DNA of 64,000 bases from Torpedo marmorata (taxonomy: Eukaryota), in contig OZ360234.1 in the NCBI GenBank assembly GCA_977017645.1, positions 94,922,001 through 94,986,000 of the forward strand, given 5' to 3'. The notes beneath the pieces were generated by a model. The model ran no database searches, was not told the origin of the DNA, and worked only from the letters and a program-made list of their open reading frames with translations. Positions 19,950-45,454 of the stretch are shown piece by piece. The position numbers were made by a program, and so were the translations under genes. Each line of letters starts with the position of its first letter. Within the stretch, counting starts at the first letter, position 1.

Positions 19950-21330
19950 ATTCCGTGACGTATGAAGGAGTTCTCCCCAGTGACGTTCCCTTCTATAACG
20001 TCACGGAAAAAAGAAACATTTTCCCGCCTCCAGCCCAATTCTCATTGATCAGCTGTGGGGACAACATTTCGGGGCTGTGATTGGTTGGATGGAGGTTTGG
20101 GGGCGGAGGGATGAGATGGATATAGGAACGATGTGCGGCGACGGGGAGTGCAGTCTGGGACCATGGGTACACCTGATGCACGCAATTCCGGTAAGAGAAC
20201 AAACGGGCAGATTAGCACCGGGACTAACAGAGTGCCCCTGGCGATGGCTGGGATTGGTGTTGGATGCGCCGCTGGGACCGACTGAGGTTGACACTCGGTC
20301 AGAGACTGACACCGCGGCTGAGAAGGATACTGGGGTTGAGAGGGTTCGGGGGTGGGGTCTGGAGTTCAGCACTGGAACTGGGAGAGATTGCGGGCGGATG
20401 TCGCTGGGTCCGGGTGTGATTGTCATTGGGACTGGGTAAAATTGGCATTGGGGTGGTTGGCGCTGGGAACGGCACGGAGACTCTGTCCAGGTTTGGCACG
20501 GCAGATTATCGGAGTCTAGCGACTCTCGCCCCGTGTTACCTGGCAAGAGCTCCATTGATGGGATATGCGCCCGGTGAAGCGAGCTGTGCCCGAGACGCCG
20601 CATCCTGCGAGCAGAGAGGCCGGGCAGAGAAAGAGTTACCTGAAGCGTGAGCTCTGCTGCTACCATCTCAGAAGCTCCATACCCCGAGCATTTGCTGTCG
20701 TTAGCGCAGATCTCCAGCAACCTCGTTGACACGCATTAAACGTAACTGTCCATCGGATTCGGCAGCTGTTTCTGACCCACCTTCGTGTCTAGCCCTTTGC
20801 CGGTCCTCGATTCGGTCTCGGGACGTGGGCGGTGACGCCTGTGTGGATCTCTGCGCCTTGTACCCGCATCCCCTGGCACCTCCCGACCCGTGGGTGCGGG
20901 AACCCAGCCGGCGGCTCACCCGGCAGATGCCACGCAGTGGGGACGACCGACCGAAGGAAAGCGCACTCGAGCTGCTGCTCCCCGCTGCTGACTATTGGCC
21001 CGGTCGATCGGGTTGCCCGTTAATGGCCCCACGTCCACCAGCGGTAGGGAGATCATTTGGAGGCCGGATTGTTTCCCCTGCTCACTTTGAGATCCAGCGC
21101 AATTGGCATCTCCTGTGTACTTTCGTTCCCTTGGCCCCACCGGTGCGTGGTCTCTCGGGTGAGTCGTCGCTAGGTTCCCACACGCCGCCCAGGTCCACAC
21201 TGCATCGCCGCCTGTCCGGTGTATCATCCGGTGGTGCGGGGATGAACGCCAAACAGAGCCACGCTGCGCCCTCATCTCCTCTTCAAAATATATCCCCGGG
21301 CCTTCACCGACTTCTGGGTACGAACCCTGG
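19950..21330. promoter_or_regulatory. CpG island, probable promoter of the RGCC-like gene
   Basis: GC- and CpG-rich, non-repetitive; two TGACGT half-CRE sites near 19957-19986, ATTGG (CCAAT) and GGGGCGG (GC box) near 20080-20107; ends at candidate exon 1. Confidence 0.65.
21242..21317 (+). CDS. RGCC: Candidate coding exon 1 of RGCC-like gene (MNAKQSHAAPSSPLQNISPGLHRLL)
   Basis: ATG with G at -3 at the end of the CpG island; phase-1 donor G|GTACGA joins exon 2 in frame; no sequence similarity to confirm it. Confidence 0.5.
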
Positions 21331-21656
21331 AGATCCCTGCCTAATGGTGATGTGAAGGTAGCTCCAACACAATGGCAGTGACTCGGGAAAAGAGTTCACC
21401 GCTGTGAGGGACCAGGCACCCTAGCCTGACCATCCATACCCCTGTCGTGGGAATAAGCACCGCAGTAACAAATGAACATTTGAAACAAATCCCGCAGACG
21501 CTGAAAATCTGTAAGACAACACAAAAGTGCTGGGGAAAAAAACTCAGCAGGTCTGGCAGCATGGTGAGGCGGGATATAACAGTTAAAGTTGATGGAAGAT
21601 TCCTTCACCTGATTAAATGTTTCTCTTTCCACCGTGGGCGCTACGCCAACCGTGGA

Positions 21657-21918
21657 GCGGCACGGTTGGCGTAGCGGTTAGTGCAACGCCTTTACAAGCG
21701 CCAGCGATCGGGACCGGGGTTCGAACCCCGCGCTGTATGTAAGGAGTTTGTACGTTCCCTCCGTGTCTGCGTGGGTTTTCTCCAGGGGCTCCGGTTTCCT
21801 CCCACCCTTCAATAAAACGTACCGGGGTGTAGGTTAATGGGGTGTAAATTGGGCGGCACGAACTCGTAGGACCGAATTGATCTGTTACAGTGCTGTATGT
21901 CTAAATTTATTTATTTAA
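21657..21918 (+). mobile_element. tRNA-derived V-SINE (HE1-like)
   Basis: A box TGGCGTAGCGG, B box GGTTCGAACCC, V core GTGTCTGCGTGGGTTTTCTCC...CTCCGGTTTCCTCCCAC, CR1-like tail GTGCTGTATGTCTAAATTT. Confidence 0.85.
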
Positions 21919-22519
21919 AGTTTCTGCCCAACCAGCTGAGCTTTTCCAGCACCATTTTCATGCTGACTCCGATGCGAATCACATTCGCATGAATTGGGGC
22001 ATTCCTCTGTGCCTTTCCTATCTAAGTACCTGCCCAAATTCCTTTTACTGCTGTCATTCCATCTGCCTCAACTATCTCCTCTGGCAGCTCCTTGGTTCAA
22101 ACATTTGTGCTGAAGTCTCATTCACTGATTGATTCTCCCTAAAATCAAGGACTGCCCCCAAGGGGGTTCACCAACAATACCTGATCGGATTCACCACCAA
22201 CCTAAAATTCAGACTGTTACACTCTCTCAGCAGAAGATGAGGTGCTCAAGGTCATGGTACTGGAGTAGAATAGAAGCCACAATAACTCAAAGCTGAGAAC
22301 TATTTCAGAGCCATGGTTAATGTCCTATGCTTTAAATGGTTTCTTGTAGTCTTTAACCAAGAACAATGCAGAAGAAAACCATTCAGTTTATTGTGTCCAT
22401 GCCAGCAATCCCATAAGTCCCATTTCCCAACTCTCCACTTCCCTGTACCCCTGCAACTTATTTTCTCTCACACATACCTGCCAGCTCTCCATTGATTCCA
22501 TTTGCCATGTAACTTGCAA

Positions 22520-22675
22520 TAGCCAATTAACTCAAGTCTTGGGTGTGAGAGAACCTGGAGCTCCCAGCAATGGAGAAAATGTGCAAACTCAACACTGCCA
22601 GCATCTGAAGTTGGGATTGAACTAAACACCAGAGCTGTGGGACAGCAGTACCACCTGCTACACTACCATGCCATC
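22520..22675 (-). mobile_element. Decayed V-SINE
   Basis: GGAGAAAATGTGCAAACTC...GGGATTGAAC...CACTACCATGCC, the reverse complement of a SINE head and core. Confidence 0.6.
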
Positions 22676-22754
22676 GTTTGACCCTATTTACTCTGGGGAA
22701 GGTGATGATGATTCACCTTGAGTTTGAATACAGCAATGACAATGCAATTCAGAG

Positions 22755-23285
22755 CCACCTTATCCATTTCAAAGGGCAGTTAAGAGTAAACCATAGTCTT
22801 GTGGATCTGTGAATCAAAACAATTCTTTCATTTGCAAACATGGTTAATTGTAGTTTGCAGGAAAGTCTTGCTTCATGTGATGTAGTATCAGATTGAGATT
22901 AATGAAGTTACAGAATCGTTACCAAATTGGCTTGTAAATTTTTCTTTGAATAGTCTCGTAATTTTTCTTTGTTGCTAATATCTGTAAAACTGTAACTGAC
23001 ACTTGGGTGTGGTAGAAGGTAGCAGAAATAGTAGGAGTCACAGACACGGGCTGGGTTGGGTAAAGATGGTAGATTTTCTTGCCTGAAGGTCACCGATGAT
23101 TCAGATGTTTTTTTTGGTAATCCAATTGTTTTTGTCGTCACTGTTTTCATCGAGTAGTTATTTTTCCAGATTACTAATAGAATTTAAATACCAAAGCTGT
23201 TGAGGAATTTGAACATCTTTGGATTTTTACTCTAAACCTCTGAATTACTCGTCTGATAATTTAGCCACTGCACTGTTACTGTACC
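22755..23285 (-). mobile_element. Old DeuSINE (SacSINE-like) remnant interrupted by a duplicated segment
   Basis: CATTTCAAAGGGCAGTTAAGAGTAAACCA...GTGGATCTG | GAGTCACA...GGTAAAGATGGTAGATTTTCTT resembles the Deu core as recalled. Confidence 0.55.
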
Positions 23286-24135
23286 CAACTTGTGGAATGA
23301 ATCACAAAATCGACAATTCGATTTGGGTACCAAAGCTTGCTCTTTAAATGCCTGTGTGAGTTTAATATGGGGTTAGTGCAGAAAGGTGGGACCAGGGAAA
23401 AGATTAACCATGATATTTTGATTGGTGGAGCAAGCATGAGATGCTGATTGGGTTACTCCTTCTAGTTATAATGTTGTCAGTGCTCAATTGTTGCACTTCA
23501 GCCAGCGATATTGAAATGTGACGTCTTTCTCACTACTTTCAGTGTGGAATGAGGAAGAATTTGATGCTCTTCTCAATGAATTCAATGGGGTCATTAATGA
23601 TCTCTCCTGCCCTGCAAGAACTGGTACTCAGTATGAGGAACATTTGAATCAGAAAAAACGAATGGGTGCCACCAGCGCTGTGGACAGTGGAATCGATGAT
23701 CCAGAGAGTGAGTAATGCACTGTGTGGGATGACTAACCATATGATTACTTCATGATGGGTGTGGTGATTAATTATAATTAAACTGTACTGGTACAGTGCA
23801 AATGGTTTTGATATAAATTTCAAACCGGGCAAATGGCATGCTTGCTATTGAAATCTATGCAAGTGCTGGACATTCACCACAGGGTGATGCAGAATCATTG
23901 CTACATCAATTTCAATGCACAAATATTCTTTCATTTGCAAAGATGGTACATTGAAGTTTGTAGTTTGCATGGAAGTCTTGCTTCATGCGGTTAAGATTTA
24001 ATGAAGTTACAGAATCATTACCAAATTGGCGTAAATTTTCTTTGAATTGTCTTGTAATTTTTCTTTGTTGCTAATATCCAGAAAACTGATTGATACTTGG
24101 GCTTGGTAGAAGGTAGCAGAAATAGGACGAGTGGG
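22822..24135 (+). repeat. Diverged ~215-bp direct repeat pair (22822-23035 and 23926-24135) flanking RGCC-like exon 2
   Basis: Both copies run ATTCTTTCATTTGCAAA...AATGAAGTTACAGAATC...GTAATTTTTCTTTGTTGCTAATATC...GGTAGAAGGTAGCAGAAATAG. Confidence 0.9.
23543..23707 (+). CDS. RGCC: RGCC-like exon 2
   Basis: CTACTTTCAG| acceptor, A|GTGAGT donor; EEFDALLNEFNGVINDLSCP...QYEEHLNQKKR...DSGIDDPES aligns with RGC-32 DLSDALCEFDAVLADFASP...HYEEHLERMKRR...DSSGFSDSES. Confidence 0.9.
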
Positions 24136-24907
24136 ATCAGAGTAGGAGGGGACGGATTTGAAATGTGAGAATGGACAGAGATTTGTTGGGCTTTGTGTTT
24201 GTACATTTCCTCCAATTTCATTTAGAACTGAACATCTGAGGAGCCTTCGATTTTGGGGAATATGTTTTCTTGAGCAGCTTGGTATTTGTTGCCCATCAGT
24301 GGCTGCCCTGAAAAGCTGGTGGTGGTTCTTTTGAATTGGGTGAGACAACTGAGGAGCTTTCTGAAGTCACAGTGGAAGATTAAGTGTCAGTCACATTGGT
24401 GTTGAACTGAGGCTTCCTTTTCAAAGGGTGCTGGTAAAGCAGTCATGCTTACATTGACATATAAAAGAGGGTTTGTATAAAAACATGTGGGGTCCATGCA
24501 GGAAAGGGACGTGGAGGTGAAAGATCAGTCATGATCTTATGAGTGATGGAGCAGGGATCACACCAGCTGCTCCTTCTTCTACTTCTCGTGTTCATACATT
24601 ATTTTTAAAATTTGATTTAGAAATACAACACGGTAACAGGCCCTTCTGCCCAAAATTCACCCATGAGACCAATCAACCCCACACGTCTTTGGAATGTGGG
24701 AGGAATCCCACACACACACATCTACAAACTCCTTAGTGTTGTGCCACCCCATTATCTTCTGCTTACTTCTTGCATTTAAATGTGACTTCTTTATTATGTG
24801 AGGAATGAGGTTGAATTTAATGCACTCAAACATTTATATCATTGTCATACTGAAACTCTGTTTAGTAAAAGGCCACTGTAGTACAAAGCAGCCTTGTATA
24901 AAGCCTT

Positions 24908-26022
24908 TAATTGTGCAGATGACACGAAGATTGGTGGAGTTGTGGACACTGCAGAGGGCTATCACAGGATACAGCAGGATATAAATCAGTTGCAGATATA
25001 GATATAGGCGGCATGGTTATCGCAACGCTGTTACAGCGCCAGCGATCAGGACTGGGGTTCGAATCCGGCGCTGTTTGTAAGGAGTTTGTACGTTCTGCGT
25101 GGATTTTACCCAGGGGTTCCGGTTTCCTTCCACTGTTCGAAATGAACCAGGGGTTGTAGGTCAATTGGGTGTAATTGGGCAGCACGGGCTTGTGGGCCGA
25201 AATGGCCTGTTACCGTGCTGTATGTCTAAATTTAATTTTTTTTTTAAATGGCAGAGTTTAATCTAGACCGGTGTGAGGTGTTGCACTTTGGGAGGTCGAA
25301 TTTAAGGGGAAAGTATACAGTCAATGACAGGATTCTTAACAGCACGTTGTGCAGAGGGATCTGGGGGTCCACGTCAAGAGCTCCCTGAAAGTATCCACTC
25401 AAGTTGATGGAGTGGGAATGAAGATGATTTTATACTTGTTATCATTGGTTGGGGCATCGGGCATAAAAGCAAGGAAGTCGTTTTGCAGCTGCATAAAACT
25501 CTAAATACCTCAAGAATATTGTGTGCAAATCTGGTCACCCCATTACAGGAAGAATGTGGAGGCTTTGGAAAGTGTACAGAAGAGGTTTACTTGGATTCTG
25601 CATGGATTGAAGGGTATGAGTGTGAGGATCAGCTGGACAAGCTTGTTTTCTCTGGAGTGGAGGAGGCTGAGGGGAGACCTGATAGTTTATAAACTATGAG
25701 AGGCATAGATAGGGTAGAGTCAGAATCTCTTTCCCAGGGTAAAAATGTCAAGCATCAGAGGACATCTGTTTCAGGTGAGGGAGGAGAGTTTGAAAGTGAT
25801 GTGTGGGGCAAGTTTCAACAGAGTAGTAGGGGCCTGGAACAGACTGCCAGCGGTAGGGTTGCAAGCAGATACAATTGCAGCTTTTAGGAGGATTCGAGAT
25901 AGACATGAGTTGGCATGGATTAGAGGGATATGGATCATGTTTAATTTGGCATCATGTTCGGTGCAGACATTGTGGTCTGAAAGGCACGTTCCTGTGCTGT
26001 TCTGTTCCATGTTGTATGTCTA
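24908..26022 (+). mobile_element. Old 5'-truncated CR1 LINE interrupted by a V-SINE
   Basis: GCAGATGACACGAAGATTGGTGGAGTTGTGGAC start, continuing after the SINE with CEVLHFGR-like sequence and a CR1 tail. Confidence 0.8.
25007..25246 (+). mobile_element. V-SINE (HE1-like)
   Basis: GGTTCGAATCC B box, V core, tail GGCCGAAATGGCCTGTTACCGTGCTGTATGTCTAAATTT. Confidence 0.85.
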
Positions 26023-26517
26023 TAGTTCAGCAATGTTTGAATGAACTTCCAAATGTAACTGTTTTATGCATGGCTGTCAACTACTTTGTGTAAAGAGCAA
26101 TTCTGCAGTACTTGCAAAATTCAAGTGGTTACAGTCCAAATCCTTCTTCCCCTTCTCCTTCTATTCATATCCTTGTGATCAAACATTACTTGCTGCCACT
26201 CCTAGCATCCTAAAGATGAGTGGGGTTAGTTGGTTGATTGTCTACAACAAATTGTTCCTCGTGAGTGGTATACTGTAATTAATAGAATGTCGGGAAAATG
26301 GGTTTAATGTAGGATTAGTGTAAATAGGTGATGATCGGCAGGTACTCGCTGGTCTGTGCTCTATCACCCCATGACTCATTCACTGTTCTCCTCTGTTCGC
26401 CTGTTGAGGTCAGTCACTGCCCAAAAACTTCATTGGCTGTGACTGCCTGAGGCCTTTCAAGGTGCTGTGATTTCCAAGGCTTTCTTCCTCGAATAAGTTT
26501 GACAATGTCTCGGCAGT

Positions 26518-26980
26518 CTCCAACCAGATGTCATCAATCTCGACCTCCAATTTCTGTTAACTCTCCCCCCCCCCCCTAGTCTCTCTCTTTCCCTATCGCT
26601 CTGTCTCCTTTCCAGATCCCTGTCCCTCCCCTTCCTTCTCCTCTCAGTGAGCTACCCTTCTCAACCCTCCACCCTTCTCAACCCTCCACCCTCCCCCTGT
26701 CACATCTCGGCTTTTCTCTTCTGAACTCCCACCTGTATCCACCTATTACCTCTAACCTGTTAGCCTGCACTCCTCCCTTCCTCCATCCTCTCCTCTTCCT
26801 CCTTCCCCCCCCCCCCACCTTTCTCTTCGGGTATATAGCTGTTTTTCAACATTCCTGACATAGGGCTGACCTGAAACCTCGACTGCTTTTATTTCCAAAG
26901 GAGTTTGCATGACCTGCTGAGTTTCTCCAGCATTTCTGTGTATTGCACTAGAGCCCAGCCTCTGCAGATTTCCTTCTTCA
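26518..26980 (+). mobile_element. Penelope-like 3' fragment with pLTR
   Basis: End of the GIY-YIG ORF (LQPD..NLD), pyrimidine tract, decayed hammerhead-like core 26855-26880, GACCTGCTGAGTTTCTCCAGCA. Confidence 0.7.
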
Positions 26981-27254
26981 CCTCCATTTGACAATCGTAC
27001 ATAGAGTTAAGCTGGGGTGAAATTCTTTCCACACCACGACCAACAACCGCTCAGGTGCTTGCACTTCCGATGATCCTCCTTTCAAACTCACTGGGAGTAT
27101 GAGCAAAGAATTCCCTAATCTGACACAATGACTATGGCAATGAAAGTGGATGGGTGGAGCGATGCAATTTCAATTTAACCTCCTCATTAGGAAACCGACA
27201 TGACCAAATACCTTGTTGTTTTGTGACCAATCCAGATGGACTATCTATTTACAT

Positions 27255-27393
27255 CAGTGGTTTTCAAACTTTTTCCTTCCACTCACATACCACCTTAAGT
27301 AATCCCTTACTAATCACAGATGCATAGGGATACTATGCATAGGGATTACTTAAGGTGGGATGTGAGTGGAAAGAAAAAGTTTGAAAACCACTG
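27255..27393. mobile_element. hAT (Charlie/Buster-type) palindromic MITE
   Basis: TIRs CAGTGGTTTTCAAACTTTTT / AAAAAGTTTGAAAACCACTG; exact 8-bp TSD ATTTACAT (27247-27254, 27394-27401). Confidence 0.93.
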
Positions 27394-27474
27394 ATTTACA
27401 TCAATGAGCAAAGTTTTAAACTGTGACCCACCCAATTTCTTGGATTCCTCCTGAGAAAGTGAAGTTGAAGTTAC

Positions 27475-27658
27475 CAGAAATGCTGGAGGAGCTCAGCCAC
27501 TCTCTCAGTGCCCATCGCAGGTAAAGAAATATTATCGACATTTTGGGCCTAAGCCCTTCCTCAAGGTATCAGTGAAAAGAGGCAGGTGTCTGAATTAAAG
27601 GCTGGGGAAAGAAAGGGGGGGGGTGGTGGTGGAATGGGAGAGGGAGGAGTACAGACCA
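27475..27658 (-). mobile_element. Penelope pLTR remnant
   Basis: AATGCTGGAGGAGCTCAGC end and hammerhead-like core at 27537-27564. Confidence 0.65.
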
Positions 27659-28414
27659 ACAGACATGAGAGAGAGAGAGAGAGAGAGACAGGCTGTGGAA
27701 AAGATACTTTGTTGCACTTATGCAAAAGCAGGTGCAGACCTCTGCAAAAAAAAAAAAAAAAAAAAAGCTGACAGTTGGGAGTTGCAAAGGCTGGAGAACA
27801 CAGCCAAATCCAGGCTTGTGCTTCCCAGAGAAAAGATTGGCAGAATAGCACATGGCCTCCTGTCTCAGAGAAATTCTGAGTTAAAAGCAACTTCTGTGGA
27901 AAACAGGCATGAGATCAGCGAGACTAGCTGTGAGATTCAAGCACACACCTAAATCAGTGGTATACTGATCTGAACTCGCAATCCTTATGAACACACAAGA
28001 AGCGAATGTCATCAGAGAAGGAAAAACAAGTATTTGTAAGCATAAACAGTCATTGTCTCTCTCCAACGTTCATTCAGAAGTACTTCTACCAGACACAGAG
28101 CTGAATTTGAAACCTGAACTTAGAGAGTGAATTTTGTGGACTGTATTATTATTTTTTTTGACTGACTTGTTTTTTATGACTGACCTGGGGTTTTTGGGGA
28201 AAGTTTTTCCATTTTTACATAAGGGTTGGGCACAGACTGTAATGGTAAGGGCTTTACACACACACACCTTTTAGATAAGAATAGTGTTTATAGACGTTTA
28301 TAGTGGGGTTAATTGTTGTGAAATTATATGCTTAATTGTCTTTAATAAATATAAATTTCAATTTTACCCCTTTTGCATTGCGTCTTCTGTCGTTGCTGGT
28401 TTGATTTTGTAACA
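27659..28414 (+). mobile_element. 5'-truncated solo LTR of the Gmr1-like family
   Basis: Colinear with 9310-10145 from the (GA)n tract to TGTAACA; no PBS follows. Confidence 0.85.
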
Positions 28415-28419
28415 TTACC

Positions 28420-28670
28420 TAATTTTGTATTTATTTTCATTCCCAAATATTTAATTCCATTATTTAACCTTTTAAATCGAGTAATTTCTTTACATTTATT
28501 ATAATCTCCTTGTGTCAATGCCATAATTTCACTTTTAGCAGAATTAATCTTATAACCAGATATTTCCCCATATTCTCTCAATAAAACAGTCAATTGTGTT
28601 AAAGAATCAATAGGTTTTGTCATGTAAATCAATACATCACCTGCAAATAAACTAATTTTGTTCTTTTCCA
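28420..28670 (-). mobile_element. Internal L1 ORF2 fragment
   Basis: KISLFAGDVLIYMTKP...GIKYLG, same family as the other L1 copies. Confidence 0.85.
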
Positions 28671-29395
28671 ACCTATACCTCTCTCCTGATGGCAGCAGTG
28701 AGAACAGAGCGTGTGCTGGTTGATTTGGGTCTTTGATGATTGCTGCTGCCCTCCGACGGCAGCGTTCCCTGTAGATGTACTCAATAGTGGGAAGGGTTTT
28801 GCCAGTAATGTCCTGGGCTGTGTCCACTACCTTTTGGAGGGCTTTACGCTCAGGGGTATTGGTGTTCCCATACCAGACCGTGATGCAGCCGGTCAGCACA
28901 CTTTCCACCACACATCTGTAGAAATTTGCCAGGGTGTCTGGTGTCATACCAAACTTCTGCAAGCTCCTGAGGAAGTAGAGGCACTGACGTGCTTTCTTCA
29001 CGATGCCATTAGTGTGTTGGGTCCAGGAAAGATCCTCCGCGGTAGTGACTCCCAAGAACCTAAATTTGCTCACCCTCTCCACCCCTGATCCCCCAATGAT
29101 CACTGGATTGTATACCTCTGGCTTTTCTTTCCTGAAGTCAACAATCAGCTTCTTAGTTTTGGTGATATTGTGTGCAAGGTTGTTGTTGGTGCACCATTCA
29201 GCCAGGTTTTCAATCTCCATCCTGTATGCTGACTCATCCCCTTCCTTTTTGCAACCTACTACCGTGGTATCGTCGGCAAATTTGTAGATGGTTTTATTGT
29301 TATACCGAGCTACACAGTCGTAGGTGTAAAGTGAGTAGAGCAGGGGGCTAAGAACGCAGCCCTGTGGTGCTCCGGTACTGATGGAGATCACTCCT
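28671..29395 (-). mobile_element. Rex1/Babar-like LINE RT fragment
   Basis: STGAPQGCVLSPLLYSLYTYDC, KFADDTTVVG, NFYRCVVESVLTGCITVWYG. Confidence 0.88.
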
Positions 29396-29419
29396 GCCCA
29401 ATAGCCCATGAACCTTTTG

Positions 29420-29655
29420 ACAAAAACAAACTGTTGGAGTAACACTGCAGGTGGGCTAGCATCTGTGGAGGCAAAGCGATGGTCGACATTTTGGATCAAG
29501 ACCTGCATCAGGGGTTTCAGACCTTCCCTCTCACTTCTCTGTACTGGCTGTCTTCCATCTACACTCTCAGTTCTGACGAAGGGTCTCGTCCCAAAAGGTC
29601 GATCCTCTCTCTGCCTCCACTGATGCTGCTCAACCCTCTGAGTTCTTTCAACGAT
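29420..29655. repeat. Inverted pair of Penelope pLTR ends (fold-back unit)
   Basis: GCATCTGTGGAGGCAAAG...GTCGAC arm versus GTCGA...CTGCCTCCACTGATGC arm; hammerhead-like cores on both strands (29485-29511 minus, 29573-29600 plus). Confidence 0.7.
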
Positions 29656-29929
29656 TGGTTTTCACTGTGTTTAAGGTCAGGAAACACGGTGGCCATTTTG
29701 GGTCAAGCAAGTTGCCAAAAATATCGTAAGAGGAACGGATTAAACGGAGATAAATCATTGGATTGTTGGTGCAAGCTGAGGATAAAACTTGGAGAAGACT
29801 CATATTGTCCTTGCTCTGGATCTCAGATCCTTGATGTGGCTCTCATGAAAAGTGAATGGAGACTCTGATGTTTATATTTGACCTGATTCTGTGGAAGCAT
29901 CAGCACAAAACAACACCCTCCCCTTTTTT

Positions 29930-30212
29930 CATTGCACAATGTGCTGGAGAAGCTAAGATACTTCGTCAAAGTATGAGCAAAAAGCAGGCAGGCGCATGAA
30001 TAAAAAGATGGGGGAGAGGAGAGGAGAGAAGAGAAGGGGAAGGGGATGGAGCACAGGTCAGAGGTCATAGGTGGATATATACCTTGAAGGGCCCAAGCCC
30101 AAAACAGTGGTTACCCTTCACTTCCTATAGTTGCTGTGTGACCTGCTGAGTTTCTCCAGCACGATTGTGTATTGCACTCAACCCCAGCATCTACAGACTT
30201 TCTTGTTTAACG
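29930..30212. repeat. Inverted Penelope pLTR unit just upstream of RGCC-like exon 3
   Basis: CACAATGTGCTGGAGAAGCT arm versus AGTTTCTCCAGCACGATTGTG arm. Confidence 0.6.
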
Positions 30213-30234
30213 CCCTCCCCTTTTTAATTGACAG

Positions 30235-30312
30235 GCACCGGATCATCTGCTGGCAGTAGCTTGAACTGTAGTGTGGAGAAGCTGAACTCCACGGACACAA
30301 CAACAACCAAAG
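30235..30312 (+). CDS. RGCC: RGCC-like exon 3
   Basis: TTTTTAATTGACAG| acceptor, AAG|GTAGGA donor, phase 1-1; STGSSAGSSLNCSVEKLNSTDTTTTK aligns with RGC-32 NSFSFSDEKLNSPTDS. Confidence 0.85.
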
Positions 30313-33817: not shown

Positions 33818-35864
33818 GTGAAAAATGCAAGTCAAAGATTAGAAAGTCATGAAAACAGCCAAGGTCATCAGGATGCGACCATTTACCTTCACTACAAGGT
33901 CTCGAGGTATTGGATGTGTAATACCAGTCAGAACGGGATTACATGAAAGTCCTTCTGGAAAGGGTTGTTGCTACAATTAAATTTATTGCTGTGCGGGGAC
34001 GAGCCTTTAGGGGCCACAATGAGTGTATTGGATCAGCAAACAATGGCAATTTTATAGGGACACTAGAATTGTTAGCGCAATTCGATCCTTTTTTTGGCAA
34101 CGCATATTGAAAAAAAAATGGAAATAAGGGTAAATGCTCTGTGTCCTACCTTTCATCCACAGTATGTGATGAGCTGAATGAAATATTTGGGGGAAAAAAG
34201 GTGTTAGAAAAATTATTTCGGAAATCAAAGAAGCCAAATATTTTTAAATATCTGGATTCAACCCCTGATATTTCACACGTGGATAGGCTGTCTTGCATAT
34301 TTTGATATGTGCATGAGAGTGGTCCTATTGAAAGATTCATCAAATTTCTCGATTGCAGAGGTCACAGTGGTGAACAACTTGCTGAGAGTATTCTGATGTT
34401 TTTAGTAACAGAAAAAATAGACTTAGAGAACTGCAGAGGTCAATCTTACGACAACGCCTCCAACATGGGTGGCAAGTATAATGGTTTTCAAGCTAAAATA
34501 CCTGAGATAAATCCAGTAGCTGACTATATTCCTTGCTTTTGAACCTTGTCGGTCATCCAGCAGTGGATTGTGTTCTGAAAGCTACTGCTTTTTTGATTTT
34601 GTTGAACAGTTGTACAATTTCTTCAGTAATTCAACCCTCCGGTGGGAAATACTTGTGGGCGAGCTTGGAAAGAATCTTGCAGTTGTGAAGAGACTTAGTG
34701 ATACACGATGGTCTGCTCATGCAAGTGCTACGGCCTCCCTAGATCAGGGATACGAGAAAGTGAAGTCGGCATTGCTGGCAATCCAGATGAAAAGTCAAAC
34801 AACCGACAAGAAGCCAGAGGCATTGTGAGCAAAATGGATTCTCTGGAGTATGGAATACTTCTCAGCGTTTGGGCAACAATTTTGGAGCAATTGCACAAAA
34901 CCAGCTTGAATTTACAAAACCCAGAAATAGATCTTAACGAAGGCCTCAGGACCAATGACTCATTTGAGGACTTTGAGCAAGAAGGCATTGCAAAGGCTGG
35001 GACATCAGTTTACAAAGAAGAAACGCAAAGTTAGTATCAGGATAACAAGGTATGACGGTGAAGCACAGGCAACAGATTTTTCACCTCGCCAGAGAAGTTT
35101 CAAGATTAATGTGTACTTACTGATCTTAGACAAATTATCAGCAGATCTTAAAAAATGCACTGATGCATACAGATCTGTGTCCAACCGATTTGGATTTTTT
35201 TTTCTCGTATTTGCAATATTGATGTCGACGCACTTAAAAAGGAAGCGAATACCCTCATACAAGTTTATCCGGACGACTTTGACTTAGCCTTTGTGGAAGA
35301 GCTCCTCCACTTTCAGAAGTACATTCAAGGACAATCTGATGATGATGTCATTGGGATGTATTGAGCTCTGGCAAGAGATCGACTGCACGAGGCGTATCCA
35401 AATACATGCATTTGCTTTAGAATTTATCTGTCCTTAATGATCACTAACTGTTCAGATGAGCGTTCATTTTCGGCACTGAAGAGGATCAAAACCTATTTGC
35501 GCTCAACAATGAGCGATGAGAAACTTAGTAATCTGGCACTCATGCACATTGAATCAGATATGCTTCAATCTGTTGATTTAAATGCTGTTATCGACACTTT
35601 TGTAAACCAAAAAACACGGAAGTTTTTAAAATTACAAATGTAAAGAAAATGAAAAATAAATGAATAAAAGGGCTGTAATTGATTCATATAACTTTATGAT
35701 ATTATGCATGTAGTACATTATACATAGTACAATGATATGTTATTTAATGTAACTTAACATCACTTTTTTTTCTATTCAACGAAGGGTGGGGGCCATGGGG
35801 CAAGGTCAGGGGGGGCCTTACTAAAGCTCAGCCTAGGGCCCGGGTGGTAGTTAATCCGCCACTG
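33818..35864 (+). mobile_element. hAT (Tip100/ZMYM1-like) transposon, 5'-truncated, transposase pseudogene
   Basis: AFRGHNE, DSTPDISHVD, GQSYDNASNMGG, KRLSDTRWSAH, ERSFSALKRIKTYLRSTMSDEKLSNLALMHIE; 3' TIR TTAATCCGCCACTG ending at 35864. Confidence 0.88.
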
Positions 35865-36291
35865 CATCTTTGGAATACCAGCATGTTCCTCCAATACCTA
35901 ATTGTCCTGGAGAAGCCGGTGATGCGTTGCCTTCTTGAACCCCTTTAATTTGTGTGATGATGCTCCCACCGTGCATCAGAAAAGCAGTTCGTAGACTGAA
36001 GATCTATTTTTTTTAAGATGGGACGCATCTTGAATTGGTTGTGTGCCCATGGGCAAACCCTTGAGCTACATGGTGGACAATGCACAGGTGTTCTGTAACT
36101 TGCTGCCAAAGAAGCTGTGGTGCATATGTGCAGTGCACCTTTTGTCTTAACACCACCCTCCTGCAAAGTACATTATCTCAAATACATATTTGAATTGTAA
36201 GAAGTTGTTCTTGACAAAGTAGCAATATACCTTGGTCTTTATCACTCATTTGCATCTTGTAGATTAATCCTTTTGTTTCTTTTTTCTGAAG

Positions 36292-36354
36292 CCAAGCTTG
36301 GAGACACAAAGGATCTGGAGGATTTTATTGCGGACCTGGACCAGACGTTAGCAG
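36292..36354 (+). CDS. RGCC: RGCC-like exon 4
   Basis: TTTTTTCTGAAG| acceptor, CAG|GTATCT donor; AKLGDTKDLEDFIADLDQTLA, nearly identical to RGC-32 AKLGDTKELEAFIADLDKTLA. Confidence 0.95.
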
Positions 36355-36711
36355 GTATCTAGCAATTTTAAAAGTATTAAGACACATCAACAGTGAACTA
36401 TCTGCAATCTCTATTGCCTCCATCTGTAAGAAGTGTTTTCTAAGTGATTGAGGTGAGATGCTGCCACATCCAATTAGTCTTTGTATTGCCTCCTGGGCGC
36501 TCTGCCTGTCTTCACACCCCATAGATGGGTGGATTGAAAGACCAATGGCCAGAGCGACAGACGAGCAGCAAGTTTAAAGCCGTTTCCTACTGTCCCAGAA
36601 ACACTGAGTGCAGAGCCACTTCCAATACTCCAGAGCAGATTTTGTGCTACATTCTGAAGTCGCCCAATACAGACGTGGATAAAGGGCCACATTCTGTTAT
36701 CCCATAATAAA

Positions 36712-36842
36712 AAGAGAAAATGCAGGAAACAGTCAGCAGGTCAGACAGCAACTGTGAAAAGAGAAATGGTGTAAATGTTTCACTTTGAGGACCCTTCAAT
36801 GCTGTCTGACCTGCTGAGTGTTTCCTGCATTTTCTATTTTTA
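36712..36842. repeat. Fold-back Penelope-derived hairpin
   Basis: AGAAAATGCAGGAAACAGTCAGCAGGTCAGACAGCA versus TGCTGTCTGACCTGCTGAGTGTTTCCTGCATTTTCT. Confidence 0.8.
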
Positions 36843-37689
36843 TTTCAGATTTCCAAATTTACATTTCTAATTGGCGTAATTGCAAGTCTCAGACCATGAG
36901 TCGATGTGATTACCTCTGACATATCAATGCAGCTTTTACTGAATTGACTGATTTGCCTGCAAACGATTTGATTCACTTTCTGCCACAAATGCTATCTGCA
37001 AACCCCACAACATGGCTGTTGCCATGTATGCAAGGGCAGAGTATCAAACGAGAGGGGGTTGTTGGTCTCTAGGCTCACTGCACCAAATGTGGTAGTGTGG
37101 TGGTTGTAACTGGTAGCTGTACCAGGCAGATTGAGAAAATAAAGCTCCTCATTCAAGTGTTCTCGGCCCAGTCAGTTACTTCAACAGTGACCTTCAGTTG
37201 ATAATCCAATATCTAAAACATCAGCCAAGACCAAAGTCATGAGCATGCCGGCCTAATGGAGTTTCAATGTATCAATCATGAAAGCCTTAAAGCGATTTGC
37301 ATTGTCATGGAAACATGCCGGGTTTATTAATGTGGTTAAAGAGGAAAGTCTGTAGATGCTGGGATTGTAGTGGAATGCACAAAATGGAGGCGAGGGTGAA
37401 CCGTAGAATTTGGCGGGAGAACCGAAGGGAGCAGCAGACAATGAAGCGTAGGTACCTGAGATCCTTGTGAGGGCCAAACTGGGAGGCCTGGAAACCGAGC
37501 TGGAAACCACGTGGCACAAGATGGCGGCAGAGGCAAGTAGCCAGGAGGGACTCATGGGGATCTATCTCACTGGTCAATGAATGTGCTTCCAGAGGCAGAA
37601 CATCTGCTGCTCCTTCAGACTCGGGTGTAACCATGAGTACCGAACTGCTGCTGGCTTTGAGAGCCCAGTGCATAGGAGAACCACACCAC

Positions 37690-37997
37690 ACCATCAGGAA
37701 AGAAATATAGGTGCCACAAGACTCAAGTTCAGGAACAGCTGCTGCTCCTCCACCATCAGACTCCTCAACAACAAACTCAATCAGGGACTCATTGAAGGAC
37801 TCTTACTTTTGCACTTTGTTTTTTTTTCCTCTCTGTATTGCACAGTTGTTTACATTTCTTTATTTGTTTACATTGTGTACAGTTTTTTTTTTGCACTACC
37901 AATAAGTGGTAATTCTGCCTGGCCCACAGGAAAAAGAATCTCAGGGTTGTATGTGATATCATTGTATGTGATATTACTCTGACAAGAAATCTGAAAT
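37690..37997 (+). mobile_element. Rex1/Babar-like 3' tail
   Basis: TRLKFRNSCCSSTIRLLN end, AAAAGAATCTCAGGGTTGTATGTGAT...GACAAGAAATCTGAAAT tail. Confidence 0.7.
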
Positions 37998-38344
37998 AAG
38001 GGATGGCAGGAAATGCTGGCCTTGCCAGTGGGATCCATGTCTCCCTCCCCCACTAAAAAAAAGTCCACTGGGTGAGCAAATAACTCTCCAACCGCTGACG
38101 CATGTTTTGGAGAGCACTCACTGTTTAATGCAGGAAGCACAGATGTCAATATGCTCACCAGCTGTCGAGCTTTAACCACCACACAATCTGCTTCAATGTA
38201 TAGGGAGGTGGGGGTGGAAGAAGCAATGGGTTAGGAAGCTTTGGAGGAAGCCCTTGCTTATTTTTGAGTGACATCGCGGGAGAGTTCAGGACCACCAGAG
38301 GGAATGGGATGGGAATGCTGAATGGTGGCAAGTTCGATACATGG

Positions 38345-39565
38345 TACACAAAAGTACTGGTGAATCTCAGCAGGTCAAGCAGCATTCATAGGAGGTCTTC
38401 ATGCTGCCAAATCGAGGCCACCTGCAAATTCTGTCTCTGCACGCTCCAACCAGACGGCATCAATATCGACTTCTCCAATTTCTGTTAGCCTCCTCCCCGA
38501 CTTTCCTTTCCCCTTGCTCCGCAGCCCAATTCCCTTCCTTCTCCTTTCAGAGAACTGCCCTCTGACCTCTCCCCATCACTTCTCAGCTTCTTTCTCTTCT
38601 TTATACCTCTATCCCCCACACAGAAGGTCTGAAAGCACTTTGCTTTTTCCTGGACCAAAGACCCGACCAGTCACCCTCCACCACCACCCTCCTCCGCCTG
38701 GCAGAACTTGTCCTCACTCTCAATAACTTCTCCTTTAACTCATCCCATTTCCTCCAAATCAAAGGAGTAGCCATGGGTACCCGCATGGGTCCCAGCTACG
38801 TCTGCCTGTTTTGTGGGCTTTGTGGAGCAATCCATGCTGCAAGCCGACACAGGTAAGACCCCTCATCTCTTCCTCCGGTATATTGATGACTACATCAGGG
38901 CTGCCTCAGGCACCCGCGATGAGCTTGTCAACTTCATCCACTTCGCGTCCAACTTCCACCGCTATCTCAAACTCACCTGGTCCATCTCTGATAACACTCT
39001 CCCCTTCCTGTATCTCTGTCTCCATCTCGGGAGACAAACTTTCCACCGACATTTACTGCAAACCCTCCAACTCCCACAACTATCTGGACTACACTTCCTC
39101 ACACCCTGTCCCCTGCAAGGATTCCATCCCCTTCTCTCAATTTCTCTGTCTCCGCCGCATCTGTTCCCAAGATGAGGTCTTCCAGTCCAGATCTTCTGAA
39201 ATGTCTGCCGCCTTCCACAAATGTGGCTTCCCCTCCACCACCATCATCTCTGCCTCCAGATGCAACAAAGATAGAATCCCCCTCATCCTCACCTACCACC
39301 CCACCAGCCTCCGCATCCAACACATTATCCACTGGAATTTCTGGCACTTACTACAGGGTCCCACCACCAGACACATTTTTCCTTCTCCTCCCCTCTCGGC
39401 CTTCCGCAGGGACCGCTCGCTCCGCGATTCCCTCGTGCATTCATCCCTCCCCACCCATCGCACCCCCGGCACCTTCCCCTGTGTCTGCAGGAGGTGCAAT
39501 ACCTTCGCCCATACCTCCCTCCTCACCATGGTCCGGGGCCCCAGACAGGCCTTTCAAGTGAAGCT
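38345..39565 (+). mobile_element. Penelope-like element, partial tandem (GIY-YIG end followed by RT fragment)
   Basis: TLQPDGINIDFSNF, then QIKGVAMGTRMGPSY, FLRYIDDYI, SHPVPCKDSIPFSQFL, RIPLILTYHP. Confidence 0.88.
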
Positions 39566-39793
39566 ACTTTTGAAAAATGTGCTCAGGGGGAGCTGTCACT
39601 CCCCCTGCACCCCCCTTGCTACACCACTGCTTGGTTAACCATGCCCCAAGGAAGTTTGCTGGAGCAATCTGCTGGAGGAACCCACTGGGAACCCACTGGG
39701 AACCCAGTGGGTGGAGCAGCATCAGTAGGAGATGGGGGGAGTGAGGAATTGTTAATATTTTGGGTCAAGACCCTTAGCAAAACCAGAGTTATT

Positions 39794-42700
39794 ATTATTT
39801 AAAAAAAATATTTTTAACATTTTTAATCACTCGATAATACATACGGTATTACAAAATGCAAAATTATCAAAATAAATGTGATATATTTTCTCCCACCCTT
39901 ACTATTCTAATAAAATTAAAAAAGAAAAAAAGAAAGAAAGAAAAAGAAAGTAAGGAGAATGTCAATCTAAAAAGAACAACTATAAGCTTATTTTATTGTG
40001 GAACACAGGTTCGCCAGTGAGATCCGATATCCAGAGATCTTCAAAATCCTTAAACACACAGTTTTTATATATGGGCTCCATATTTTCAAAAAGAAATGAT
40101 ATTTGTTACGTAAATTATAAGTAATTTTTTCAAGTGGTATAGCTGAACGAAGTTCTGCATGCCATCTCTCTAACCCTAAATCTACATCAGACTTCCATGT
40201 AATAGCAATGCATTTCTTTGAAACAGCTAAAGCAATTTGCAAAAATTCTATTTGATACATATTTAATCTCATTCTAATACAAATTCTTTTAATATCTCCA
40301 AACAAAAATATCATAGGATCCATTGGGAGTGTAATTCTTAATACTTTATCTAAAAACTTTTTAACTTTCAACCAAAAATCATATCTTTGGACAAAGCCAC
40401 ATGGAGTGTAAAAAAACGAACCTTCCTCTTTGTTAGATCTAAAACATAAACCTGATAATGTCGGATTAAATTTCTTTAATTTCTTTGGTGTTAAATATAA
40501 TTGATGCAAAAAGTTATATTGCACTAACCTATATCTAACGTTAATAATCTTCGTCATACTTTGTTTACATAATTCTTTCCAATGTTCTTCATCTATTGTT
40601 ACATTCAAATCTGATTCCCATTTTCATCTTGATTTATGAATTCCTAGTTTAGGCATTTTTCTCTAACAATCTATACATTTGATAAATAAATTTATTTATA
40701 CCCCCATTAGTAACTAATAGTTCCAGTTTACTTTGTCTTGGTAAAATTAAACTATAGCCCAACCTTTCAACAAAAAATGCTCTAATTTGATAATAAGCAA
40801 AAAGTGTATTATTTAATACATTAAATTTCTCTTTCATCCTTTGAAAAGTAATAAATTTACTAGCTTCAAAACAATCATTTATTTGTTTTTAATTCCTTTT
40901 TGAAACCAAATTTTAAATAATTGATTGTCAATAGTAAATGGAATAAGTTTATTTTGATATAAAGGCATTTTTCGAGAAATTAACCCTTTCCCTCCTATCT
41001 CACTATCCACTTTATTCCATATTTCTAACGTGCTTTAAAATAGGAGAGTTTTTACCTCTTAATAGTAATTTAGAATTCCATTTATAAATAACTTCTTTCA
41101 AATCCTCTCCTATATTATTTAATTCTATTCTAATACAAGCAGAAGATTTCCCTAAATCAAACATTTCATTAATAAATTTTAGTTGAGCTGCTTTATAATA
41201 ATTTTGAAAATTGGGAAGTTGTAAACCTCCCAATTCGTAATTCCAAGTTAATTTCTCCATACCTACTCTAGCCAACTTTCCCTTCCACAAAAATTTCCTA
41301 ATAATTAAATTTAAATCTTTAAAATAAAATTGAGGAATTTCATAAGGAATTGATTGAAAAAGATATTGAATTCTGGGAAAAACTTTCATTTTAATACAAT
41401 TTACCCTTCCTATTAAAGTTATAGGTAAATCCTTCCAGCTTTCTAAATCTTTTTTAATATTCATAAATAATGATAAATAATTTAATTTATATAAATTAGC
41501 TAATTTTGTATCTGTTTTTATTCCCAAATATTTAATTCCATCATTTGACCATTTAAATTGTGTAATTTCTTTACATTTATTATAATCTCCTTGTGTCAAT
41601 GCCATAATTTCACTTTTATCAGAATTAATCTTATAACCAGATATTTCCCCATATTCTCTCAATAAAACAGTCAGTTGTGTTAAAGTAATAGGTTTTGTCA
41701 TGTAACTCAATACATCATCTGCAAATAAACTAATTTTATGCTCTTCTTTTCCAACTTTAATACCTACAATCTTAATATCTTGTCTAATTAATGGATAAAA
41801 CATCGAAATCAACTATCAGAACTAAAACTGCTAAAAGAATTCTTACTTTGATGAAAGATTTGAATTTAATAGATATTTGGAGGAAGTTGAATCCAAGAGA
41901 AAAAGATTATTCCTTTTATTCTTTTAGACATGATTCTTATTCTAGAATAGGTATGTTTTTATTGTCATCACAATTAGAAGATAGGGTGACTCAAGCGCAA
42001 TATAAAGCAAGAATAATTTCTGATAATTTGCCTCTATTAATGTCATGTATAATTCCAGAAAAATATAAAAATATATAGGTGGAGATTTAATTCCTCTTTA
42101 TTGAAAAGAATGGATTTTTGTAATTATACAAGAAGAGAAATTCAAGAATTTTTACAGATTAATTCTAATTTGATTGACAATAAATTTATTATTTGGGAAG
42201 CTCTGAAAGCTTATTTAAGAGGTCAAATAATAAGTTATTCAGCAAAAGTTAAGAAGGAATATATTCAGGAATTGGATAATTTGGAGAAGGAGATTGAGTT
42301 TTTGGAGAAGGATTTGCAAAAAAAGAGATCAGAAGAAAAGAGGAAAAATTTAACTGAAAAAAATTATATTATAATACGTTACAAACATATAAAATGGGAA
42401 AATTAATTGAAAGAACTAAGGAAAGATATTATGAATTGGGAGAAAGAGCTCATAAAGTGTTAATGTGGCAATTAAAGAAAGAAAAAACTTCTAGAACTAT
42501 AAGTGCTATAAAAAGGAATTCTAAGAAAATAACATATAAAACGAGAAATAAATGATTCTTTTAAGGAATTTTATTTAAATATATATAAATCCCAAACTGA
42601 TAAAGGTGATTCTAAAATTAATGAATTTTTATCTAAAATTAAGTTACCTTGATTAAATATTCAAAGTAAAGAACTTTTAGATTCATCGTTTACGATGAGA

Positions 42701-44456
42701 GAAGTTAATGATGTTCTTAGTTCTTTAACAAGTGGAAAATCTCTGGGGGAGGATGGTTTCCCATCAGAATTTTATAAGGAATTTAAGGATTTATGTTGTT
42801 ACAAGATTGTAGTGAGGTAGAAACCCTTATTAGGAAAGGAAATATTAAAAAAATTACTTCTATAATGTATTCTTTGTTACAAAGGGGAGTTTTAAAACAA
42901 GGACTTCATAAATCTAGACAAAGATGGGAGCAAGATCTTAATGTTATAATTGATGAAAAAAGATGGTCGGATTTATGTCAAGTATGACCAATACTATTAA
43001 TGTAAGATATAGATTAGTACAGTATAATTTTTTACATCAACTATATCTTGCGCCACAAAAATTGAATAAGATAAAATCTACATTATCAAATAAGTGTTTT
43101 AGATGTGGTGAAGAGGAGGGGAACTTTTTTACATTCAACATGGTTATGCCCTAAAGTAAAACATTTTTGGATAGAGTTAGGGAATCTGTTAAAACAAATT
43201 ACAGGTGTTACATTTCCACAGAATCCTGATTTATTTTTATTAGGGAATGTGGAAGGAACTAGACCAAAGTTGAAGTTATCAACATGTCAATTGAAATTTG
43301 TAAAAATTGCTTTAGCAGTGGCAAGGAAGTGTATAGCAGTAACTTGGAAATAAGATACAAATTTAGGCATGGACAGATGGAATATAGAGATGCGGAGTTG
43401 TATTCCATTGGAAAAAATAACATATAATATGGGAAATAAATATGGGATATTTTTGCAAATTTGGCGTCCATATATCCAATCATTAGGTATGAATATTTAA
43501 ATGTGTTGCTCTACATCCTAGACCCTGTTGACTCTCTCAAATTTAAAGAATAAATATTGTTGAATGCCACACGTCGAATCGTGGACACAGCAGCGATCCG
43601 TGCAGATGTTTTTTTTAATAAGTAATACCAATGCCTTCCTTTCTGTTTTTTAGTTTTTAGTAAGGGGAGGGAATTAAAGGGAGGGGAAGGGTGGAGGGTG
43701 GGGTAGCAACATTATAGAGCGTGGGTTATGGGATGGGTTAGATACACTGTAATACAAACTGTTTTTATTTACTGGAATTAATAATGTATATTACGTATGT
43801 TGTACTGCTGTGAGAAAATTCAAAATTTAAAATAAAATATTTTTTAAAAAAAAAAGGAATTTAAGTATTTATTGATACCTCCATATATGGAGGTGTTAAA
43901 ACAAATAACGGAAACTCATTCTCTACCGGAAACATTTTCAAATGCAATAACAGTTATACCTAAAAAAGATAGAGATGTGTTGAAAACAGAATCATATAGA
44001 CCAATTTCACTGCTAAATATGGATTATAAGATAATGGCAAAAATTTTAGCAAATAGAGTGGCTAAATATTTACCAGATTTAATCCATGTAGATCAAGCAG
44101 GTTTTATTAAGAATAGATATTCAAAAGATAATATAGCCAGATTTATTAGTTTAATAAATGTGGCAGAAAAGAAAGAGGAATCAGCACTAGTATTAACATT
44201 AGATGCCGAAAAAGCTTTTGATAGATTAGAGTGGAATTATTTATTTAAAGTGTTGGGAAAATTTGGTTTTGGAACTACATTTATTAATTGGATTAAAACT
44301 ATATATATAAATATAAAGAATCCTCTGCCAGAGTGATGACAAATGGACAAATTTCTTCAAAATTTTTGTTGTCTAGGTCAACTAGACAAGGATGCCCTTT
44401 GTTGCCAGCATTGTTTATTTTAGCAATAGAACCTTTAGCAGAATTAATTAGACAAG
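39794..44456 (-). mobile_element. 5'-inverted (twin-primed) L1 insertion with TSD
   Basis: 39794-41790 minus: RT C-terminal half, 3' UTR, (AAT)n tail; 41791-44456 plus: upstream ORF2 ending at the same LIRQD breakpoint; TSD ACCAGAGTTATT at 39782-39793 and 44457-44468. Confidence 0.9.
42795..43853 (+). mobile_element. 5'-truncated L1 of a different subfamily nested in the inverted L1
   Basis: ORF2 C-terminus, distinct 3' UTR, AATAAA, poly(A); TSD AAGGAATTTAAG(G/T)ATTTAT at 42776-42794 and 43854-43872. Confidence 0.9.
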
Positions 44457-44922
44457 ACCAGAGTTATTGACAATTCCTCCCCCTCCCTCTCCTTCTCCAT
44501 AACTCATGATGCTCAATCCCGCTGGGTTCCTCCAGCAGTTCGGATTTTGCTCCAAATTCCAGTATCTGCTGTCTGCATTGAAGAATCTTCTCGTACATTA
44601 ATTACTGTTTAAAAATAATGATCTTTAATCCATTAATCAAGATCCATTATCTCGAGATTGAACTGATTAGGCAGAGAAATCTGACTCCAGATGTAATTAA
44701 TTTTGCTGAAACTCTGCCCTGCAAGATTTCGCTCTTTGTAGCCAAATAAAACTAAACATTTTTAGAGAGGAAATATGAATCAACTTTGCAAATATTTTTT
44801 CAAACCACATGCTTTATAAAATTGGGAATATATACTGCAGTTAATAAACTGGAATGAACTTCCATTCCTAATTCGCCTGGCATCTGTGATGTGTGCAGTA
44901 AACTTTTTACTTTCTCTTACAG

Positions 44923-44933
44923 AGATGATGTAG
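44923..44933 (+). CDS. RGCC: RGCC-like terminal exon, coding part (EMM-stop)
   Basis: TTTTTACTTTCTCTTACAG| acceptor, phase 1 gives GAG ATG ATG TAG; matches the very short last coding exon of the family; followed by unique 3' UTR-like sequence. Confidence 0.7.
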
Positions 44934-45311
44934 CCATTTCTGAGATGCATGGCTAGCGTTGCACAAGGAAACGTGATGTGTGAGGGATATCAGACCGGAC
45001 GCAGCCTTAATGAAGCTTCGCACCATGAGCTCCAATCTTTGCTTGCAAAAAACCGAGACTTTGTGTGCTGGTGGAACTGATTATAGGGAGCTGCGGCATT
45101 GTGCAGGCATGAAACCTGCACAGGAAGGAAGTTTCTTTTAAAAGCTGACACATTGCATTCTATTGTTGCAAACCTCCTTTGTGTCAAATTGAAAATAACG
45201 TCAAAGTTTGCACTGTCTGAAGTTCAATACAAATTGATTCTTATCTCAACACCTTTGATCTGCAAATTTATGTGTACATTTTGTAAAATATATATTTATC
45301 GACTTGAAACC

Positions 45312-45317
45312 AATAAA
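45312..45317 (+). terminator. Candidate polyadenylation signal of RGCC-like gene
   Basis: AATAAA about 380 nt after the stop, preceded by a U/A-rich tract and followed by T-rich sequence. Confidence 0.55.
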
Positions 45318-45454
45318 CTACCGGAACTCTTAACATTTTACCTTTTGGCCTAATTATTCTCTTGTACCCTTGAGTTTTTCAAGTTTAAGAATTAAAAAAA
45401 ATAATCATATGAAAAGTTTAAAAAAAAAAAAAAAAAAAAAAAAACCAAAAAAAA

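Follow-up and report, generated by a model that had tools for sequence, protein, structure and literature searches.

RGC-32, the protein encoded by RGCC, has to our knowledge been described as having no human homolog. Human RGC-32 is reported to bind to CDK1, PLK1, and Akt and to depend on Thr91 for stimulating CDK1 (PMC5909466, PMC12303305, PMC6530392). The stretch of DNA analyzed here (the window) comprises 64,000 nucleotides (nt) from the ray Torpedo marmorata (GenBank assembly GCA_977017645.1, contig OZ360234.1, positions 94,922,001 to 94,986,000 of the forward strand). An original prediction, made from these letters without database searches, had proposed a hidden five-exon gene at 21242..45330 that encodes a divergent RGCC family member of 130 amino acids (aa), probably a second paralog, which might be an old duplicate missing from mammals. 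Working from sequence within the 64-kb window, we consider it very likely that its plus strand carries an intact five-exon gene with coding exon 1 at 20163. The gene would encode a 114-aa RGCC-like protein that is orthologous to the RGCC-like proteins of sharks and rays (elasmobranchs) and paralogous to canonical RGCC/RGC-32 by a duplication preceding the split between sharks and bony fishes.

All five segments of the original prediction are present, joined through four GT-AG introns, all in phase 1, into 393 nt encoding 130 aa. Exon 2 (23543..23707; 165 nt; this and all other parts of the gene are on the plus strand) encodes helices 1 and 2 and a DSG-acidic motif and shows 85% and 81% identity to ray and shark RGCC-like proteins. 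Exon 3 (30235..30312; 78 nt) encodes a Ser/Thr-rich linker, and short isoforms annotated for each of the two paralogs skip this exon. Exon 4 (36292..36354; 63 nt) encodes the family-invariant C-terminal helix; its acceptor (36289-36291) is AAG, a rarer type, and is preceded by a long pyrimidine tract. The coding part of exon 5 (44923..44933; 11 nt including the stop) supplies the same final residues as in most elasmobranch orthologs. It is followed by a probable 3′ untranslated region (UTR; 44934..45330), the end of which was placed from the poly(A) signal: a single AATAAA, at 45312, is consistent with a 3′ end near 45330. Among sequencing runs, none listed as RNA contained the gene; one run of uncertain kind shared 0.47 of the 3′ UTR words, which speaks neither for nor against expression. 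Searched separately, exons 2 and 4 each matched the Pfam RGCC domain (PF15151; cutoff, 27) at 34.6 bits (E = 2.5e-8) and 36 bits (E = 9e-9), respectively; exons 1 and 3 searched alone against Pfam gave no match. Since two exons each exceed the cutoff, the gene is not a chance pattern, and the predicted membership in the RGCC family is confirmed. The proposed likeness of the C-terminal helix to that of RGC-32 also held, with invariant columns in a 46-sequence alignment. Exons 2 to 5 of the predicted model therefore stand, while its first exon and its length do not.

The 13 elasmobranch RGCC-like proteins compared (P0001 to P0013) all have nine residues, no more and no fewer, before exon 2. The N termini of the Pristis, Narcine, and Heterodontus proteins are unlike the 25 residues first predicted. 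We scored (mean BLOSUM62) each of the 303 open nine-mers starting at an ATG upstream of exon 2 against the 13 ortholog N termini. The nine-mer at 20163 ranked first of the 303 with a score of 17.8 (runner-up, 10.5). The exon predicted at 21242..21317 scored 7.5 with its first nine residues (rank 7 of 303) and −9.0 with its last nine. The ATG at 20163 has a purine at −3 and G at +4, a strong Kozak context, and a donor lies exactly 28 nt on, giving a corrected exon 1 (20163..20190) of 9 codons plus 1 nt that ends in phase 1. This donor matches the consensus at 7 of 9 positions, as do the three internal donors. The donor at 21317 matches at only 5 of 9, and 16 ATG-to-phase-1-GT candidates of the same quality occur in 20201-23540. 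With this exon, the protein comes to 114 aa, as in most orthologs. We rejected exon 1 at 21242 on the ortholog N termini, its donor, and the equal candidates nearby. To judge by these comparisons, it was very probably misplaced and is most likely intron 1 sequence. The segment does have an open frame and a GT donor in phase 1, lies within a CpG-rich stretch, and has no repeat copy elsewhere in the window, as a genuine alternative first exon giving a 130-aa isoform private to this lineage might. We regard such an isoform as quite improbable, because in addition to the weak donor and the many comparable candidates, the segment resembles none of the 13 ortholog N termini and has no TATA-like element or cAMP response element (CRE) site upstream.

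With the corrected exon 1 at 20163, the gene closely matches proteins already in databases. A protein search with exon 2 yielded 3 matches among 9 candidates, all of them 114-aa RefSeq RGCC-like proteins (Pristis, Narcine, and Heterodontus). A profile from three ray and shark proteins gave 141 matches among 191 candidates (120 of the matches are listed), a full HMMER search returned 100 representatives, of which 20 proteins are named, and a search with the canonical RGCC of the sawshark Pristiophorus gave 112 matches among 121 candidates. The gene is thus not hidden as had been claimed: RefSeq already carries close orthologs from a range of sharks and rays under the name "regulator of cell cycle RGCC-like." The window protein is identical to the RGCC-like proteins of Pristis at 101 of 114 positions and of Narcine at 99 of 114 (87 to 89%), compared with 50 of 113 (44%) and 46 of 111 (41%) for the canonical RGCC of the same two genera. 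Its score was 173 bits on an RGCC-like profile versus 105 bits on a canonical one. Both paralogs were found in seven cartilaginous fishes (Pristis, Narcine, Hemitrygon, Scyliorhinus canicula, Heptranchias, Pristiophorus, and Callorhinchus). For Pristis and Narcine, which are represented by one-member clusters, the two lie on contigs that differ in length (103.0 versus 120.5 Mb and 179.7 versus 216.9 Mb, respectively). Both types also came from coelacanth, sturgeon, moray, platypus, leopard gecko, Phrynocephalus, Pogona, Lerista, and Lonchura.

Phylogenetic analysis with RGCC and RGCC-like proteins placed the window protein outside the canonical clade. The careful tree had 39 rows, omitting 28 rows of a 67-row set for which a quick method was used. 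In the 39-row tree, the window protein was sister to Narcine RGCC-like (support, 100/94) inside the elasmobranch RGCC-like group (95/97), and the canonical RGCC proteins of sharks, bony fish, and tetrapods formed one clade (95/92). The quick 67-row tree was concordant. Approximately unbiased (AU) tests rejected grouping of the window protein with shark canonical RGCC (p-AU, 1e-4) and with all canonical RGCC (p-AU, 5e-5). Pfam scans found no host gene in the flanks within the window, as could be the case if this were the only, fast-evolving canonical RGCC of the species. That reading is rejected as extremely improbable: both canonical placements fail the AU tests, the RGCC-like profile outscores the canonical one, and the nearest relatives, Narcine and Pristis, each carry a separate canonical RGCC. 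The predicted second paralog, distinct from canonical RGCC, is thus borne out by the seven cartilaginous fishes with both types, the tree, and the AU tests. Because the canonical clade contains both cartilaginous and bony fishes, the duplication is older than their split, and the duplicate is ancient, as had been suggested. Annotated isoforms that skip exon 3, one RGCC-like (P0014) and two canonical (P0318 and P0152), join at the residues that form the exon 2/4 borders in the window gene, and P0014 and P0318 miss exactly the 26 residues at exon 3. Since the skipping isoforms join at identical residues, the two introns flanking exon 3 are common to both paralogs.

Two profiles sorted 327 proteins plus the window protein into 92 RGCC-like, 231 canonical, and 5 unclear. 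Named entries of the RGCC-like type came from lungfish, coelacanth, sturgeon, teleosts, axolotl, frogs, lizards, snakes, crocodile, birds, platypus, and five marsupials. The supposed absence from mammals was wrong, because the RGCC-like type includes entries from platypus, koala, Tasmanian devil, Gracilinanus, wombat, and bilby. Among the 120 of 141 matches listed, all 26 placental entries named were canonical, including the rat "RGCC-like 1." None of 17 unnamed RGCC-like proteins had a mammal as its nearest named neighbor. These sequence assignments make loss of RGCC-like in placental mammals likely but not proven, because the word-based search was incomplete, with 120 of the 141 matches listed. 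Of the major groups of jawed vertebrates sampled, all but placental mammals appear to have kept copies. The gene had also been likened to a poorly studied fish rgcc-like paralog; it is of the RGCC-like type and outside the canonical clade, but the type is not limited to fish, since tetrapods have it. Orthology of the window gene to teleost rgcc-like specifically is plausible. Database names mix the two branches (P0016, P0025, P0038, P0120, P0227, and P0235). RGCC-like proteins are named "RGCC" in Callorhinchus, Gekko, and many bird entries ("RGCC protein, partial"), and canonical proteins are named "RGCC-like" in rat, Heptranchias, and sturgeon. No paper describing a second RGCC branch was found in the titles and abstract beginnings of the open-license literature, and the history and function of this branch appear unstudied there.

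The duplication may have been one of the early vertebrate genome doublings. The Callorhinchus RGCC-like protein (P0016; UniProt V9LGH5) is labeled "Chloride channel 5," an erroneous name that an adjoining CLCN5 gene might explain. We take CLCN5 to lie with AKAP4 and DGKK, and their paralogs AKAP11 and DGKH to flank RGCC. This gene order would make RGCC-like and RGCC ohnologs and serves as a lead only; no paper on a CLCN5-linked ohnology of RGCC was found in the same literature. We give about even chances to a fuller account in which RGCC-like is the twin of RGC-32 from the early doublings, lies beside CLCN5/AKAP4/DGKK, was kept from sharks to marsupials, was lost once on the placental stem (probably from the X-linked block), and represents a natural separation-of-function variant.

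Upstream of exon 1, a probable proximal promoter (19956..20125, plus strand), the function of which we infer from motifs, lies on the 5′ margin of the CpG-rich stretch (observed/expected CpG, 0.76 to 0.96 across 20001-22000). CRE/ATF-type half-sites at 19956, 19981, and 19998 are 3 of the 16 such half-sites in the window. CCAAT boxes lie at 20035 and, inverted, at 20080, with a GC box at 20101 and a TATA-like element at 20120. At the other end of the gene, the 3′ UTR contains two AUUUA motifs and a Pumilio-like element at 45273, which has 1 mismatch to UGUANAUA and lies 39 nt upstream of the poly(A) signal. UGUA is common near poly(A) signals. Human RGC-32 is reported to have a Pumilio element next to its poly(A) signal. 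No microRNA-30 seed was found in the 3′ UTR (44934..45330).

Motif comparison separated the two branches. An RRS[SA] cluster, the canonical RRSS form of which we take to be an Akt site, was found in none of 35 RGCC-like proteins (the window protein included) versus 28 of 31 canonical proteins. The aromatic RF.Y motif was likewise found in 0 of 35 versus 26 of 31. A full cyclin-dependent kinase (CDK) site, S/T-P-x-K/R before the last helix, is absent from the window protein and was found in 1 of 35 RGCC-like versus 8 of 31 canonical proteins; the proteins with the full site are all tetrapod canonical proteins except for one sturgeon RGCC-like protein. RGCC-like proteins typically have a DSG with acidic residues after it; DSG is present in 33 of 35, a count in which the match in lungfish, coelacanth, and sturgeon is at a different position. 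The motif is a putative degron, with a resemblance to the β-TrCP consensus. An AlphaFold model of the Narcine ortholog, built on an alignment of 46 rows, has helices at residues 13-31, 38-53, and 97-113, with a predicted template modeling (pTM) score of 0.26 and low confidence in the Ser/Thr-rich linker. Six weak sequence matches to solved structures (best E value, 0.069) were rejected, a Foldseek search with the low-pTM model gave 0 matches, and in the Atlas, a search by features retrieved RGCC clusters and no others, whereas one by structure gave nothing above the bar.

From these features we propose a mechanism that, taken as a whole, is tentative. RGCC-like may be a small, nonenzymatic, largely disordered adaptor like RGC-32. 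Its three helices, chiefly the invariant C-terminal one, would bind the same class of partner (CDK1, PLK1, and Akt in the case of human RGC-32). Since there is neither an RRSS cluster nor a CDK consensus site, the protein would probably be uncoupled from kinase control through these sites. It might instead be controlled by supply, through signal-inducible transcription from the CRE-type sites and through the Pumilio-like element adjoining the poly(A) signal, and possibly by turnover through the DSG-acidic motif.

Several results weigh against parts of this account. Monophyly of shark, fish, and tetrapod RGCC-like proteins had a support of 43/0, and two alternative groupings survived the AU test, namely, shark RGCC-like with the canonical clade (p = 0.49) and shark RGCC-like with tetrapod RGCC-like (p = 0.13). 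Support is low because the sole outgroup, a hagfish protein, is a very divergent long branch; this protein scores slightly higher on the RGCC-like profile (48 bits) than on the canonical one (36 bits). The diagnostic motifs common to RGCC-like proteins could be ancestral, and the RGCC-like set could consist of several old duplicates (cartilaginous, ray-finned, and tetrapod). We think this unlikely. One exon-3 motif occurs in 33 of 35 RGCC-like versus 2 of 31 canonical proteins, and median lengths are 114 versus 129 aa. No species among the results has two distinct RGCC-like types (sturgeon has two near-identical entries), and the grouping of shark and tetrapod RGCC-like proteins survived the AU test as well.

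The other unfavorable points concern the placental loss, the neighborhood, and the mechanism. Teleost RGCC-like proteins and the canonical proteins of sharks also escaped the search behind the placental absence. No neighboring host gene was found in Pfam scans of 207 flank open reading frames (ORFs; 110 and 97) and 51 intron-region ORFs of at least 90 aa; the flank set comprised all 204 ORFs of at least 60 aa and 3 shorter exon-like ones, out of 414 of at least 40 aa, so that short neighbor exons could escape it. The promoter and UTR motifs are short and putative, which bears on the regulatory part, and in the literature surveyed, no RGCC-like protein had a function ascribed to it. The CDK site is missing from all eight cartilaginous-fish canonical RGCC proteins examined (P0227, P0229 to P0234, and P0292) and from 23 of 31 canonical proteins overall. 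We therefore rejected its loss as a trait specific to the paralog; only the RRSS difference is paralog specific. The same result bears on the idea that RGCC-like competes with RGCC in a dominant-negative or kinase-insensitive manner, binding the same partner without activating it. The conserved binding-type helices, the missing RRSS cluster and CDK site, and the reported Thr91 requirement for CDK1 activation would fit such a competitor. However, shark and ray canonical RGCC proteins likewise lack the full CDK site, and we consider the idea doubtful. We prefer the adaptor that is probably uncoupled from RRSS/CDK control.

The surroundings of the gene are rich in mobile elements. Flank and intron ORFs matched long interspersed nuclear element (LINE) endonuclease and reverse transcriptase, SCAN, protease, and integrase pieces of the long terminal repeat (LTR) type, and a hAT fragment, and the few other Pfam matches there lie in or beside mobile elements. 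An LTR-type element with SCAN and an integrase zinc finger is contiguous at 62283-63872. Its upstream copy is in two pieces, 10838-11399 (94% identical) and 17229-18228 (90% identical), and the intervening 5.8 kb or so contains a LINE with a 654-aa reverse transcriptase ORF (14569-16530), a nested insertion. At 61765-62193 (plus strand), between protease-like and SCAN/zinc-knuckle ORFs, there is a match to Pfam PF25526 (LIP-1, "liprin-alpha-like coiled coil"; E = 2e-44) that is probably part of a retroelement gag and not a host liprin exon. ALKBH8_N matches at 28345-29661 (minus strand), 47291-47983 (minus strand), and 51069-51470 (plus strand), one of them sharing an ORF with a reverse transcriptase, are likely the C-terminal domain of a LINE and not ALKBH8 exons. 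An AT-rich LINE family has at least four copies that are 77 to 82% identical (39908-41616, 15386-17237, 53706-55566, and 59451-61308), one of which is inverted within intron 4. A hAT transposase dimerization fragment lies in intron 3 (35365-35640, plus strand), and an assembly gap of 149 N is present at 9873-10021.

The immediate use of the analysis is the corrected gene model, with exon 1 at 20163 and a product of 114 aa; the window gene itself adds another ortholog to a protein known from automatic annotation. More broadly, jawed vertebrates have two old branches of the RGC-32 family, the names of which are confused in databases. If the placental loss and the ohnology are true, this would be one more gene lost on the placental stem, and comparison of the twins could locate the parts of RGC-32 that carry its core activity. 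A paralog without the RRSS cluster in any of the 35 members examined could, if the account is correct, reveal the function of the helices apart from kinase control. The cartilaginous-fish canonical proteins that lack the CDK site suggest that the human Thr91 mechanism is a later, mainly tetrapod, addition.

Among described systems, the closest are the RefSeq RGCC-like proteins of elasmobranchs (Pristis pectinata XP_051878384.1, Narcine bancroftii XP_069752140.1, and Heterodontus francisci XP_067903972.1), of which the window gene is an ortholog. They share with it a length of 114 aa, a nine-residue first exon, 81 to 89% identity, the C-terminal end, and the exon 3 borders, and differ only by species-level substitutions at 13 to 22 of 114 residues. 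The RGCC-like proteins of bony vertebrates (coelacanth XP_005992951.1, sturgeon, teleosts, lungfish, axolotl, lizards, crocodile, birds, platypus, and marsupials) have the same diagnostic motifs and length class and also fall outside the canonical clade, but are only about 46 to 51% identical to the window protein in the lungfish and tetrapod rows compared. Canonical RGCC/RGC-32, the human gene for which presumably has a five-exon layout, shares the PF15151 domain above the cutoff, the invariant C-terminal helix, and the introns around exon 3. In contrast with canonical RGCC, to which it is 41 to 44% (ray) and 46 to 53% (mammalian) identical, the window protein lacks RRSS and RF.Y, has another exon-3 motif, and is shorter.

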